A DNA stretch of 64,000 nucleotides from Escherichia coli (GTDB lineage Bacteria > Pseudomonadota > Gammaproteobacteria > Enterobacterales > Enterobacteriaceae). Where the stretch lies: assembly GCF_044324785.1 (NCBI RefSeq), contig NZ_CP172127.1. One strand, given 5' to 3'. The translations under genes and the position numbers were made by a program. Below the pieces are notes generated by a model. The model saw nothing but the letters and a program-made list of their open reading frames with translations, did not search any database and was not told where the DNA came from. Below, piece by piece: positions 21,255-30,318 of this stretch; the first letter of the stretch is position 1, and each line of letters starts with the position of its first letter.

Positions 21255-21274
21255 TCTGTATAGTTATTTATTCG

Positions 21275-21307
21275 CAGGAGTACCGGAGCGGTACTCCTGT
21301 TGGTTTT
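21275..21307 (+). terminator. Hairpin terminator between convergent yhiD and chuV
   Basis: Stem caggagtacc / ggtactcctg followed by ttggtttt. Confidence 0.6.
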
Positions 21308-22076
21308 AATGATCGAGGACGATCAGTGGTGAATGGTTGGCAGGATCTTTAAGTACGGTAATATCCGCGCCGTAGAGCATTGTCAGTGCCTGCTGTGTCA
21401 ATACATCCTGCGGTTTACCATTTGCGATAACCTTTCCTTTTTGCATTAATACAATACGGTCTGCATAACGTGCGGCAAGATTTAGATCGTGCAATACGCA
21501 GCAAACATTGAATTGCCGTTCGTGAACTAACTGGCGTAATAAACGGAACAAGTGCTGCTGATGGTGAATATCCAGCGCCGAAGTTGGTTCATCAAGAAAT
21601 AACCATTTCGGTGAGGGAGTAGGTTCCCAGAGTTGCACCAGCAGGCGCGCTAATTGCACGCGCTGTTGTTCACCACCGGATAATTGCCGATAGTCGCGGT
21701 TTGCTAACGCCTGACAGTCACATAACGCCATTATTTGTGCTGTTTCATTATCCTTATTACCAGTGCGATGCGGATGCCGCCCCATCTGGATAACTTCTTG
21801 TACGCTGAATGGAAACGCCATGTGGCTATTTTGACGCATCACGGCCCGGTGTTTCGCCAGTTCAGTAATCGACCATTTATTTAATGGCTTATTAAACAAC
21901 CGACATTCGCCGCTATCAGGTTGAAGATAGCCGGTTAACTGGCGAAGCAGCGTAGATTTTCCCGCACCATTAGGGCCGAGAATGGCAACAATTTCCCCAC
22001 CGGGAAAAGTCAGCGAGACATTATCAGTCAGGCGTCGCCCATGAAGGCTATAAACCAGATTCTGGGCGCTGATCAT
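21306..22076 (-). CDS. chuV: Hemin ABC transporter ATP-binding protein ChuV/HmuV (256 aa)
   Basis: Walker [13 protein letters not shown] signature LSGGEQQR, Walker B LFLDEP; start codon overlaps the chuU stop (ATGA) at 22073-22076. Confidence 0.9.
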
Positions 22077-23065
22077 GTGATCCTCCGGTTGCGCAGAATC
22101 AACCACATAAAATAAGGACCACCAAGCAGGCTGGTTAATAATCCCACGGGCATTTCTGCTGGCTGTACCAGCGTGCGGGCAAGCGTGTCTGCCATCAGCA
22201 ATAAACAGGCTCCGGCGAGGGCGGAGCAAGGGATTAGCCAGCGGTGATTTGCTCCGGTAGTCATGCGAATCAGATGCGGGATCACCAGGCCAATAAAGCC
22301 GATAATGCCGCTTACCGATACGGCAGCACCAACGAGCAGTGAGCTCACTAACAGTAATTGCTGGCGTTTACGCTTAACGTTCACGCCGAGGTAGTGGGCT
22401 TCTTCATCACCGAGCTGCAGTAAATTCAGCGTTCCGGCGAGACAAGTTGTTGCGATAATGGCCGGTAGGATGAATGAACTGGCAACCAATAACGTCGGCC
22501 ATTGCGCCTGTCCAAGATTGCCCATCATCCACAATGTGAGTTGTCGTAGCTGCTGCTCATCGCCGATATAGCTCAGGATGCCGATCGCTGCGCCGCACAG
22601 GGCATTGATGGCGATACCAGCGAGTAATAATTGCATCATGCTGCCATCGCGATGGCGCTGCGTGATGAGAAAAATGATGGTGCAGACCACTAAACTTCCG
22701 ACAATGGCAAACACCATTTGCTCATAGAGCACTAGCACCACTGGGAAGGAGAAGGGCAGCACAATAGCAACGCCAACCATTAATGCAGAACCGCTACTGA
22801 CGCCAAGTAATCCTGGGTCAGCCATTGGGTTGCGAAAAAGCCCCTGCATAATTACCCCGGCGGTTGCCAACGCTGCACCTACCAGCACCGCCAGCAAAAC
22901 CCGTGGTAGACGAATATTGAGCCAGATATCGCGGTATTCCTCATCAAAAAGGGCATCAAAACTGATCCTTAACGCTCCCTGACTGGCACCGAACAGCACC
23001 AGAGCGAGCAATAATAGTGATAGCCTCATAAAGACCCTGGCGGAAGAGAGTGAATCCTTGAGCAC
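22073..23065 (-). CDS. chuU: Hemin ABC transporter permease ChuU (FecCD family)
   Basis: Multi-TM FecCD/BtuC-like permease upstream of the ATPase; exact start uncertain. Confidence 0.9.
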
Positions 23066-29181: not shown

Positions 29182-29229
29182 TCATCTGCCCCGATATTTC
29201 GGGGCATTTATCTGGAAGGAAGAGAGACA

Positions 29230-30258
29230 ATGAACCACTACACACGCTGGCTTGAGTTAAAAGAACAAAATCCCGGAAAGTACGCGCGTGACATCGCAGG
29301 TTTAATGAATATCAGCGAAGCAGAACTGGCATTTGCACGCGTCACGCACGATGCGTGGCGGATGCGCGGCGATATCCGTGAAATTCTGGCGGCGCTCGAA
29401 AGTGTTGGCGAAACCAAATGTATTTGCCGTAATGAATATGCAGTCCATGAGCAAGTTGGTACGTTCACAAACCAGCATTTGAACGGACATGCCGGATTGA
29501 TCCTCAATCCGCGCGCGCTGGATTTACGTCTGTTTCTCAATCAATGGGCCAGTGTTTTCCACATCAAAGAAAACACGGCTCGTGGCGAACGCCAGAGTAT
29601 TCAGTTCTTTGATCATCAGGGCGACGCATTACTAAAAGTTTATGCCACCGACAATACCGATATGGCGGCATGGAGTGAGCTTCTGGCACAGTTTATCGCC
29701 GATGAGAATACGTCGCTTGAGTTAAAAGCCGTGGATGCGCCAGTCGTTCAAATGCGAGCCGATGCCAGTGTGGTCGAGCAAGAGTGGCGGGCGATGACCG
29801 ACGTTCATCAGTTTTTTACGTTGCTCAAGCGCCACAACCTGACGCGCCAACAGGCGTTCAATCTGGTGGCAGACGATTTGGCCTGCAAAGTATCCAACAG
29901 TGCGTTGGCGCAAATTCTTGAATCTGCACAGCAGGATGGCAATGAAATCATGGTGTTTGTTGGCAACCGTGGCTGCGTACAGATTTTCACTGGCGTGGTA
30001 GAAAAAGTGGTGCCAATGAAAGGTTGGCTGAATATTTTCAACCCGACGTTTACTCTTCATCTATTAGAAGAGAGCATTGCTGAAACCTGGGTAACCCGTA
30101 AACCTGCTAGTGACGGTTATGTGACCAGTCTGGAATTGTTTGCCCATGATGGTACACAGATAGTGCAACTTTATGGTCAACGTACAGAAGGCGAACAGGA
30201 GCAAGCGCAATGGCGTAAGCAAATTGCTTCGCTGATACCGGAAGGCGTTACTGCATAA
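29230..30258 (+). CDS. chuS: Heme oxygenase/heme-utilisation protein ChuS (HemS family, 342 aa)
   Basis: Full-length ORF recognised as ChuS/ShuS; immediately downstream of chuA. Confidence 0.9.
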   Translation: MNHYTRWLELKEQNPGKYARDIAGLMNISEAELAFARVTHDAWRMRGDIREILAALESVGETKCICRNEYAVHEQVGTFTNQHLNGHAGLILNPRALDLRLFLNQWASVFHIKENTARGERQSIQFFDHQGDALLKVYATDNTDMAAWSELLAQFIADENTSLELKAVDAPVVQMRADASVVEQEWRAMTDVHQFFTLLKRHNLTRQQAFNLVADDLACKVSNSALAQILESAQQDGNEIMVFVGNRGCVQIFTGVVEKVVPMKGWLNIFNPTFTLHLLEESIAETWVTRKPASDGYVTSLELFAHDGTQIVQLYGQRTEGEQEQAQWRKQIASLIPEGVTA

Positions 30259-30318
30259 CGTATAATTAAAGGGAGGTCTGGCTATTTATTGCTGGGCCTC
30301 TTTATATTAATCAATCGA

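Follow-up and report, generated by a model that had tools for sequence, protein, structure and literature searches.

The chu (shu) heme-uptake locus of Escherichia coli at its canonical yhiD-dctR site, very probably an ancestral occupant

The stretch of E. coli DNA analysed here (termed the window, 64 kb in length) harbours between positions 21306 and 30258 eight chu genes, all of which are intact and free of internal stops according to the list of open reading frames (ORFs) and their translations. Six of them (chuV, U, Y, X, W and T) are read from the minus strand, the remaining two, chuA and chuS, from the plus strand. Gene names were assigned through NCBIfam profiles, matches to solved structures and the RefSeq annotation of N3, the closest E. 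coli genome, where the locus is 98.8-99.2% identical and all eight genes are named. ORFs, profiles, annotation and structures thus confirm the gene content and the orientations given in an earlier note on this DNA. Ordered along the window, the genes and their neighbours are:

20607-21254, plus strand: yhiD (MgtC/SapB family), left flank in the acid fitness island (NF007431, 400 bits vs cutoff 214; N3 annotation)
21306-22076, minus strand: chuV (shuV/hmuV), heme ABC transporter ATPase (NF010068, 396 bits vs cutoff 261)
22073-23065, minus strand: chuU, heme ABC transporter permease, FecCD family (NCBIfam and N3 annotation)
23114-23737, minus strand: chuY, anaerobilin reductase (PDB 5GUY/5FFQ, E ~1e-134, full length; N3 annotation)
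23737-24231, minus strand: chuX, cytosolic heme carrier, HutX family (TIGR04108, 209.6 bits vs cutoff 110; PDB 2OVI)
24244-25581, minus strand: chuW, radical SAM methyltransferase, anaerobic heme degradation (TIGR04107, 571.7 bits vs cutoff 400)
25601-26515, minus strand: chuT, periplasmic heme-binding protein (PDB 2R7A (ShuT), E 2e-161; N3 annotation)
27199-29181, plus strand: chuA, TonB-dependent outer-membrane heme/hemoglobin receptor (TIGR01785, 587.6 bits vs cutoff 316.85)
29230-30258, plus strand: chuS, heme oxygenase / heme-degrading protein (PDB 4CDP, 1U9T; E ~1e-225, residues 1-342)
30319-30849, minus strand: dctR (yhiF), LuxR-type regulator, right flank in the acid fitness island (NCBIfam and N3 annotation)

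ChuV, ChuW and ChuX score above the cutoffs of NCBIfam equivalog models and ChuA above that of a subfamily model. ChuU matches related FecCD/BtuC models in NCBIfam below their cutoffs, and is identified by comparison with the annotated shuU of N3 (nucleotide identity 99.9%, tblastn 100%). Near-identical solved structures exist for ChuA/ShuA, ChuS, ShuT, ChuX and ChuY; residues 29-660 of ChuA match PDB 9DHE and 3FHH (ShuA) at >1400 bits, and the protein has a signal peptide and an aromatic C-terminal residue. ChuV contains the Walker A motif GPNGAGKS and the signature LSGGEQ, while ChuW harbours CATHCTFC at residue 67, corresponding to the CxxxCxxC motif. The gene chuA is a routine phylogroup marker, and primer matches locate the 288-bp Clermont amplicon inside it at 27434-27721; the remaining Clermont markers fall beyond the window. 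The gene chuS lies directly downstream, at a distance of 48 bp.

The divergent promoter region between chuT and chuA carries several predicted control elements. A scan for Fur sites, allowing at most three mismatches to the 19-bp consensus, returned two predicted boxes where 0.01 sites are expected by chance, one in each promoter (26539-26557 and 26891-26909), which substantiates the Fur-box-like sequences mentioned in the earlier note. The elements are:

26539-26557, no strand assigned: Fur box of the chuT promoter, transcript +1 to +19, three mismatches, coinciding with the published shuT site
26623-26636, no strand assigned: perfect FNR-type palindrome TTGATTTTTATCAA, predicted, centred ~72.5 nt upstream of the chuT transcription start
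26871-26909, plus strand: chuA promoter-like hexamers TTGATC and AATAAT, 17 nt apart, overlapped by the Fur box 26891-26909; conserved block
27170-27201, plus strand: shuA/chuA FourU RNA thermometer, covering the Shine-Dalgarno sequence (Rfam RF02597, 60.1 bits vs gathering score 58)

Transcription of shuT starts 42 nt upstream of the ATG, and the Fur site there has been experimentally defined (PMC5458455). Across the lineages compared, the chuT Fur box is unchanged save for one substitution in E. albertii. The predicted chuA promoter implies a 5' UTR of ~290 nt, consistent with the published length of 278-342 nt (PMC3660397), and the thermometer sequence is invariant in seven lineages.

The roles of the chu proteins are taken from published work, the present analysis covering their presence and integrity only. 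Upon iron limitation, Fur would leave both operators, and chuAS and chuTWXY-UV would be transcribed divergently. ChuA would import heme across the outer membrane in a TonB-dependent manner, ChuT would hand it to the ChuUV ABC importer and ChuX would act as heme carrier. In the presence of oxygen heme would be degraded by ChuS; in its absence the radical SAM enzyme ChuW would open the ring to anaerobilin, which ChuY would then reduce. The FourU thermometer would limit translation of ChuA to about 37 °C.

Perfect FNR-type sites occur twice in 64 kb, and TTGATTTTTATCAA is invariant in all seven lineages including E. albertii, against an identity of only ~78-80% in the intergenic DNA around it. 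On this basis we tentatively propose that FNR may directly activate the chuTWXY(-UV) operon through the predicted site, a proposal somewhat short of even odds. The small RNA FnrS represses chuS. If the proposal is true, FNR and FnrS would constitute a two-armed oxygen switch, by which anaerobiosis raises ring opening by ChuW/ChuY and lowers oxygen-dependent ChuS, and a functional site would explain the choice between the aerobic and anaerobic branches of heme degradation. No report of an FNR-type site upstream of chuT was found in the searchable literature; FNR ChIP work has mainly been done in K-12, which does not carry chu.

The locus is tightly embedded between yhiD and dctR, with gaps of 51 bp to the yhiD stop (yhiD ends at 21254) and 60 bp to the dctR stop (30319). 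The earlier note had called these junctions tight and had suggested that the endpoints be fixed by alignment. Compared to the empty site L002, homology stops after the yhiD stop codon plus TCTGT (21259) and restarts at the dctR stop (30319). The following features define the borders and the interval between the plus-strand genes:

21260-30318, no strand assigned: 9059 bp found only in the chu-positive allele (from the comparison of its junctions with the empty site L002)
21274-21300, plus strand: intrinsic terminator for yhiD, perfect 12-bp-stem hairpin followed by TTGGTTTT (-22.7 kcal/mol, z -3.5)
29187-29206, plus strand: predicted GC-rich hairpin and T-rich tail between chuA and chuS, possible attenuator
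30270-30303, plus strand: chuS terminator, 13-bp-stem hairpin followed by UUUAUAUU (-20 kcal/mol, z -4.5)

The yhiD terminator adjoins the stop codon of chuV, which is encoded on the other strand, and is kept in the cryptic lineages. The chuS terminator contains G-U pairs and is strong on the plus strand only (minus strand: -10.2, z -1.7); its stem is retained in strain E69 (see below) and E. albertii, where both arms carry base changes. The connection between heme acquisition and the acid-resistance locus made in the earlier note reduces to physical adjacency: a strong terminator hairpin stands at each border, which speaks against transcriptional linkage with the acid-resistance genes, and the chu genes have their own Fur-controlled promoters.

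The chu-specific interval contains no ORF beyond the eight chu genes, and no integrase, recombinase or mobility gene; a tRNA is absent from the entire 64-kb window. The ends of the island show neither direct nor inverted repeats above chance, the longest common direct repeat of 8 bp being equalled in 64 of 500 shuffles. In these respects the earlier description holds. A deletion between the 8-mer AAGGCGTT, common to the 3' ends of yhiD and chuS, was considered and rejected, since K-12 retains the full yhiD 3' end plus TCTGT. Further along the flank, a 407-aa ORF beside slp is without match in NCBIfam, PADLOC or Pfam.

The age of the locus emerges from other Escherichia lineages. “E. coli” E69 (89.6% nucleotide identity) and SCPM-O-B-8794 (91.2%) have the arrangement hdeD-hdeA-hdeB-yhiD-chu-dctR-slp. 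In E. albertii (87.7%) the genes follow the same order except that yhiD is missing, and Escherichia sp. MOD1-EC7003 (95-96%) retains chuAS only, the rest of chu being deleted. E. albertii and the cryptic lineages preserve the junction sequences together with both terminator hairpins. Moreover, gene by gene, identity within chu is at the level of the flanks, and chu and flank distances, taken pair by pair, are correlated (r = 0.92 for dctR, 0.98 for yhiD). Since E. albertii and other lineages share these junctions, and divergence tracks that of the flanks, we infer that chu was already resident at this site when E. albertii, the cryptic lineages and E. coli last had a common ancestor, and that it was inherited vertically with some homologous recombination. 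The “insertion” relative to K-12 has already been discussed, in agreement with this history (PMC5799925), and published work types the cryptic clades by clade-specific chuA alleles.

Among 5426 complete E. coli genomes, 2238 (41%) carry the chu locus, in every case as a single chromosomal copy of 9063-9064 bp; it was never found on a plasmid or at a second site. None of the 5426 genomes is more than 98.8-99.2% identical to the E. coli lineage of the window. One nearly invariant empty-site junction allele, TCTGTGTGGCAGCGTAGCCAGACTCACCGTAAGCCTGAAATTCA, is common to 3179 of the genomes, and its flanks are 98-99% identical to those of chu-positive E. coli. In place of the 9059 bp, chu-less E. coli contain a private filler of 36 bp. 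This 36-mer is absent on either strand from the window and five chu-positive loci (ungapped search, up to 8 substitutions), and a signal appears solely when gaps are allowed, in local alignment to the reverse-complemented chuS-dctR spacer. The alignment points to an inverted remnant of the chuS terminator, and thus to a putative deletion accompanied by an inversion or a template switch instead of a clean excision. The arrangement in K-12 has the appearance of one derived loss with a 36-bp scar. Phylogroups A, B1 and C form one derived clade, and chu marks the non-A/B1/C phylogroups, not a pathotype.

The intactness of all eight ORFs and the presence of the expected catalytic motifs count in favour of the identity as chu. 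We consider it highly probable that the region represents the complete and apparently functional chromosomal chu (shu) locus at the canonical yhiD-dctR site, that the locus is ancestral there, and that the contiguity seen in K-12 is one derived loss. Two observations speak against a history of a single loss. The empty site holds 36 bp that are missing from chu-positive alleles, and hence more than simple excision is needed. Furthermore, the acid fitness island of E. fergusonii lacks chu, its yhiD and dctR being 74 bp apart; a chu-less island thus exists in the genus, which counts against the favoured explanation. However, this island is only ~75% identical, and its position is non-syntenic (PMC5799925).

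The E. fergusonii island also favours an alternative that we regard as improbable, namely an old presence/absence polymorphism, in which either allele spread by homologous recombination in the acid fitness island flanks instead of one basal loss. Gene conversion or horizontal transfer has been offered as an option (PMC5799925), and the comparison of the window with N3 reveals a mosaic, with two differences over ~5 kb (19.5-24.5 kb) followed by ~1.8% divergence from inside chuW, indicating recombination breakpoints inside the chu locus. Yet the near-invariance of the empty allele in 3179 genomes, together with flanks 98-99% identical to chu-positive E. coli, implies that it arose within E. coli and not from a distant donor. 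The yhiD-dctR spacer of E. fergusonii, whose resemblance to the K-12 filler would have marked the empty allele as primordial, lacks significant similarity to that filler (p ~0.4-0.6).

A recent horizontal insertion into a K-12-like contiguous yhiD-dctR site, marking a pathogenic background, is very improbable and for any recent time scale largely refuted: the same junctions occur in lineages diverged by 5-12%, in proportion to the flanks, no integrase, tRNA or significant repeat is present, the locus is confined to a single chromosomal site, and it is found in commensal and probiotic strains. Contiguity in 3179 of the 5426 genomes favours such an insertion, and homologues of chuA and chuS that are 80-88% identical in Kluyvera, Citrobacter and Enterobacter render an earlier foreign origin plausible; a chu locus in E. 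albertii or the cryptic lineages far closer to that of E. coli than their flanks was not seen. The GC content of the island (50.3%) likewise deviates from that of the adjacent acid fitness island DNA (37-40%), but is near the window average (48.0%), from which the flanks deviate more. It is the acid fitness island, rather than chu, that appears to be the compositional outlier.

Under the preferred history of ancestral residence and one loss, two claims of the earlier note require revision. The reading of the locus as “inserted” relative to K-12 is not supported, given that E. albertii and two lineages diverged by ~9-10% share its site and junctions, with a partly deleted version in one diverged by ~5%; the note had itself named the opposite reading, an ancestral chu deleted in K-12, and this is largely what was found, K-12 representing one derived allele. 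Nor does the locus indicate a pathogenic or extra-intestinal background, as the 2238 positive genomes include the probiotic strain Nissle 1917. The locus, its site in the acid fitness island, its control by Fur and temperature and its patchy distribution are all already published. For annotation, chu at this position denotes the ancestral Escherichia state and a marker of non-A/B1/C phylogroups, not a recent acquisition or a sign of pathogenicity. The analysis contributes two modest points to the puzzle, known from the literature, of an “insertion then clean deletion”: chu and its flanks co-diverge in four or more Escherichia lineages that are non-coli or borderline, and the loss allele appears single and bears a 36-bp scar.

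The shu locus of Shigella dysenteriae and the chu locus of E. coli O157:H7 (Wyckoff et al.) comprise the same eight genes in the same divergent chuAS / chuTWXY-UV layout at the same yhiD-dctR site; identity to the O157:H7 locus is 97.7% over 9063 bp. The published shuT Fur site and shuA thermometer are shared as well, and there is no structural difference. Pathogenicity islands associated with tRNA genes (e.g., LEE at selC) resemble chu in their variable presence among E. coli strains and their association with virulence in the literature. In contrast to these islands, chu is devoid of integrase, tRNA and direct repeats, and co-diverges with its flanks across species. The hutWXZ / hugWXZ heme utilisation operons of Vibrio and Plesiomonas resemble chu in two proteins, ChuW and ChuX being members of the HutW and HutX equivalog families (TIGR04107, TIGR04108). 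The third gene differs: the chu locus encodes ChuY, an NAD(P)H-dependent anaerobilin reductase, which we take not to be a HutZ-type protein.

Loci of the hemR-hemS-hemT-hemU-hemV type (Yersinia hem/hmu) employ the same import chemistry as chu, and ChuA and ChuS are 70-88% identical to the receptor and HemS homologues of Kluyvera, Citrobacter, Enterobacter, Lelliottia and Buttiauxella. The hemRSTUV loci of these genera form one co-linear operon without chuW, chuX or chuY within 10 kb, whereas chu is divergent. Against ChuT their binding protein reaches only 30-36% identity; the corresponding values are ~56-66% for the permease against ChuU and ~48-55% for the ATPase against ChuV. Owing to these low transporter identities and the absence of chuWXY from the hem loci, the Escherichia locus looks like a mosaic, in which a hemRS-like pair would have been combined with a different transporter and anaerobic-degradation module.

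Between yhiD and dctR of the acid fitness island, 21306-30258 is filled by eight ORFs, which are listed here with their flanks (ORF listing) and their NCBIfam matches:

20607-21254, plus strand: yhiD
21306-22076, minus strand: chuV, heme ABC ATPase (NF010068, 396 bits against a cutoff of 261)
22073-23065, minus strand: chuU, FecCD-type permease
23114-23737, minus strand: chuY
23737-24231, minus strand: chuX, HutX (TIGR04108, 209.6 against a cutoff of 110)
24244-25581, minus strand: chuW, ChuW/HutW radical SAM enzyme (TIGR04107, 571.7 against a cutoff of 400)
25601-26515, minus strand: chuT, TroA-like binding protein
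27199-29181, plus strand: chuA, TonB-dependent heme receptor (TIGR01785, 587.6 against a cutoff of 316.85)
29230-30258, plus strand: chuS
30319-30849, minus strand: dctR

ORFs, NCBIfam matches, annotation and solved structures agree on the eight-gene chu (shu) content that the earlier note had read from the sequence, and the locus as such is already known. The closest complete E. coli genome, N3 (98.8% identity over 13 kb, 99.2% across the island), is annotated in the equivalent stretch with a heme ABC ATPase gene (chuV), shuU, chuY, hutX, hutW, shuT, chuA and chuS. Solved structures match ChuA/ShuA, ChuS, ShuT, ChuX and ChuY over approximately their full length with E-values of 1e-104 or better; ChuW, which has no structure of its own in that library, matched HemN alone, the expected outcome for a radical SAM enzyme. 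None of the eight genes contains an internal stop, ChuW retains CxxxCxxC, and ChuV retains the Walker A and LSGGEQ motifs. The Clermont chuA primers match perfectly and define a 288-bp product at 27434-27721. The chu intergenic gaps range from -4 to 48 bp, except for a 683-bp divergent control region. The 48-bp chuA-chuS spacer holds an 8-bp GC-rich hairpin with a T-rich tail (29187-29206, plus strand), a possible attenuator that would set the ChuA:ChuS ratio.

The flanks were aligned to the empty site of a chu-less E. coli (L002), which yields endpoints at 21259 and 30319: identity ends five bases past the yhiD stop (TCTGT) and returns at the dctR stop codon, and L002 has 36 bp in place of the window's 9059 bp. 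At the left border (21274-21300) a perfect 12-bp stem followed by TTGGTTTT forms the predicted yhiD terminator. At the right border (30270-30303) a 13-bp stem with many G-U pairs precedes UUUAUAUU, and since this hairpin is strong on the plus strand only, it is the predicted chuS terminator. The 64 kb contain no tRNA, the ORF listing shows no ORF within the island beyond the eight chu genes, and the best direct repeat across both junctions is 8 bp, a length equalled in 64 of 500 shuffles; the junctions had thus been described correctly as tight and devoid of integrase, tRNA or obvious repeats.

The earlier note had interpreted this arrangement as an insertion, unless all lineages already carried chu at the site. 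A ChuA scan of one genome for each GTDB species indicates that this is largely so. The genomes E69 (89.6% nucleotide identity over the locus) and SCPM-O-B-8794 (91.2%) share the order hdeD-hdeA-hdeB-yhiD-chuVUYXWT/chuAS-dctR-slp. Both are labelled E. coli (E69 as CP089930.1), but each represents a species of its own in the GTDB-based collection; given this status and the low locus identity, both probably belong to the cryptic clades of Escherichia. In E. albertii (87.7%) the gene order is identical except that yhiD is missing, and in strain NBRC 107761 (L047 3990-4103) chuV comes almost directly after hdeB, in agreement with PMC5799925. Escherichia sp. MOD1-EC7003 (L003, 95-96%) keeps chuAS and has an ERIC-like repeat in place of chuT-chuV. 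Its ERIC/IRU-like repeats, called by eye, lie at the deletion point and, as a second, inverted copy, in the chuA 5' UTR (L003 5890-5975 and 6290-6410); the left breakpoint (window 21262) falls at most 3 bp from the K-12-type breakpoint.

The junction sequences are conserved across these lineages, including both hairpins, and the right stem is kept in E69 and E. albertii despite changes on both arms. Per lineage, the chu genes and hdeD, hdeA, hdeB, yhiD, dctR and slp fall within one range of identities, and pairwise chu distances among nine genomes track those of the flanks (r = 0.92 for dctR, r = 0.98 for yhiD). Typing of the cryptic clades also makes routine use of clade-specific chuA alleles (PMC13118800). 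Most simply read, these data mean that chu was in place at this site before E. coli and E. albertii diverged, and that the K-12 arrangement reflects a subsequent loss; an insertion in the window's lineage is not supported. This question has already been discussed in print: the xenoGI paper reports that the acid fitness islands of O157:H7 and E. albertii contain chu and that K-12 and E. fergusonii lack it (PMC5799925), and in an O157-focused preprint the 23-kb island is described as the sum of the 14-kb island of K-12 and a heme O-island (10.1101/429480).

An ancestral empty site is not rescued by an E. fergusonii-type acid fitness island without chu, recovered through the YhiD cluster. There yhiD and dctR lie 74 bp apart, the island is just ~75% identical to that of E. 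coli, and the similarity of its spacer to the K-12 filler is not significant. The deletion in the chu-less allele is not clean. Its 36-bp filler (L002 2761-2796), private to this allele, could not be matched without gaps in the chu-positive loci checked. With gaps allowed, its central 17-23 positions agree at 15-20 sites with the reverse-complemented chuS terminator (15/17 to 20/23 against the chuS-dctR spacer, window 30259-30318; for example, TAGCCAGA-CTCACCGT versus TAGCCAGACCTC-CCGT). Shuffling gave p values of 0.0003-0.004 in the better comparisons and ~0.013 against the window's own spacer, and as about a dozen comparisons were made, an inverted chuS-terminator remnant in the filler is only suggested; against the E69 or E. 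albertii spacer the gapped match was not significant in shuffles. Such a remnant would fit a loss that proceeded by an inversion, or by template switching, at the hairpin rather than by simple excision.

Chu-negative E. coli are generally regarded as one derived clade (A/B1/C). The island is present in 2238 of 5426 complete E. coli genomes (41%), always on the chromosome and, in all carriers but one, at a single place; among the full-length matches listed it measures 9063-9064 bp and is 96.4-99.2% identical to the window. In 3179 genomes a 161-bp empty-junction probe aligned over 80% or more of its length, with 99.4-100% identity in each full-length match sampled, and hence the polymorphism is essentially two-state with one empty allele. 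Carriers include O157:H7, IAI39, IHE3034, APEC O18 and the probiotic Nissle 1917. At this frequency, and with Nissle 1917 among the carriers, chu is a phylogroup marker rather than a pathotype marker, and does not signal the pathogenic background previously proposed.

The window derives from a thinly sampled E. coli lineage, whose nearest relatives are N3 and some dog isolates; outside a short N3-like stretch, the best identity among the 5426 genomes is ~98.2-98.8%. Window and N3 (L001) differ at 2 positions over ~5 kb (19.5-24.5 kb, hdeA to chuX) and diverge by ~1.8% from inside chuW (near 24.5 kb) onward, which points to a recombination breakpoint inside the island and to recombination acting within the locus.

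The divergent control region contains two Fur-consensus sites (19 bp, at most 3 mismatches; 26539-26557 and 26891-26909) where 0.01 are expected by chance, in line with the Fur-box-like sequences noticed earlier. In S. dysenteriae, the shuT start maps 42 nt upstream of the ATG, with a three-mismatch Fur site, and the predicted site at 26539-26557 corresponds exactly to +1 to +19 of that transcript (PMC5458455). The other overlaps a promoter-like TTGATC-17-AATAAT, which implies a ~290-nt 5' UTR, inside the published 278-342 nt (PMC3660397). The shuA/chuA FourU thermometer (27170-27201) exceeds the Rfam gathering score. In an alignment of the intergenic region from the window, O157:H7, IAI39, Nissle 1917, two cryptic lineages and E. 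albertii, overall identity is just 78-80%, but the Fur boxes, the thermometer and several further blocks show little or no variation.

A perfect FNR-type palindrome, TTGATTTTTATCAA (26623-26636), sits in a block that does not vary among these seven lineages, which range from E. coli to E. albertii; the palindrome is centred ~72.5 nt upstream of the start of the chuT transcript. The 64-kb window holds just two matches to the pattern TTGATNNNNATCAA; the second, likewise perfect (7209-7222), lies upstream of yhjA, a known FNR target. The chuT operon codes for anaerobic heme-degradation enzymes, and FnrS represses chuS (PMC9002310). We predict direct FNR control of the chuT operon via 26623-26636; the searchable literature yielded no report of such control of chuT/shuT or of this palindrome.

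The proposed link between heme acquisition and acid resistance reduces to adjacency, as the locus has its own predicted Fur-controlled promoters and a predicted terminator at each edge. In base composition, the outliers are the low-GC acid fitness island flanks (37-40%); chu (50.3%) is near the window mean (48.0%).

Elsewhere in the window, a 407-aa ORF adjoining slp (31815-33038, minus strand) lies in DNA of 30-36% GC and has no match in NCBIfam, PADLOC or Pfam. It is evolving unusually fast, since its product is only 81-86% identical among E. coli strains that share 98-100% identity in the neighbouring genes, and it is missing from the slp-arsC interval of E69. Further Rfam matches above the gathering score are presumably ordinary K-12-type features:

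11534-11647, minus strand: GadY
17427-17498, minus strand: ES205, in the mdtE-gadE interval
37432-37515, minus strand: AgrB, near arsR
37666-37749, minus strand: AgrB, near arsR

Outside Escherichia, ChuA/ChuS homologues 70-88% identical occur in Kluyvera, Citrobacter, Enterobacter, Lelliottia, Buttiauxella and others (L004-L082), where they lead a co-linear hemR-S-T-U-V operon and chuW, chuX and chuY are absent from the vicinity. The transporter proteins of these operons are distant, however: identity to the Escherichia counterpart is just 30-36% for the binding protein (ChuT), ~56-66% for the permease (ChuU) and ~48-55% for the ATPase (ChuV). With close ChuA/ChuS homologues, a divergent transporter and chuWXY missing there, the Escherichia chu locus looks like a mosaic of two modules.
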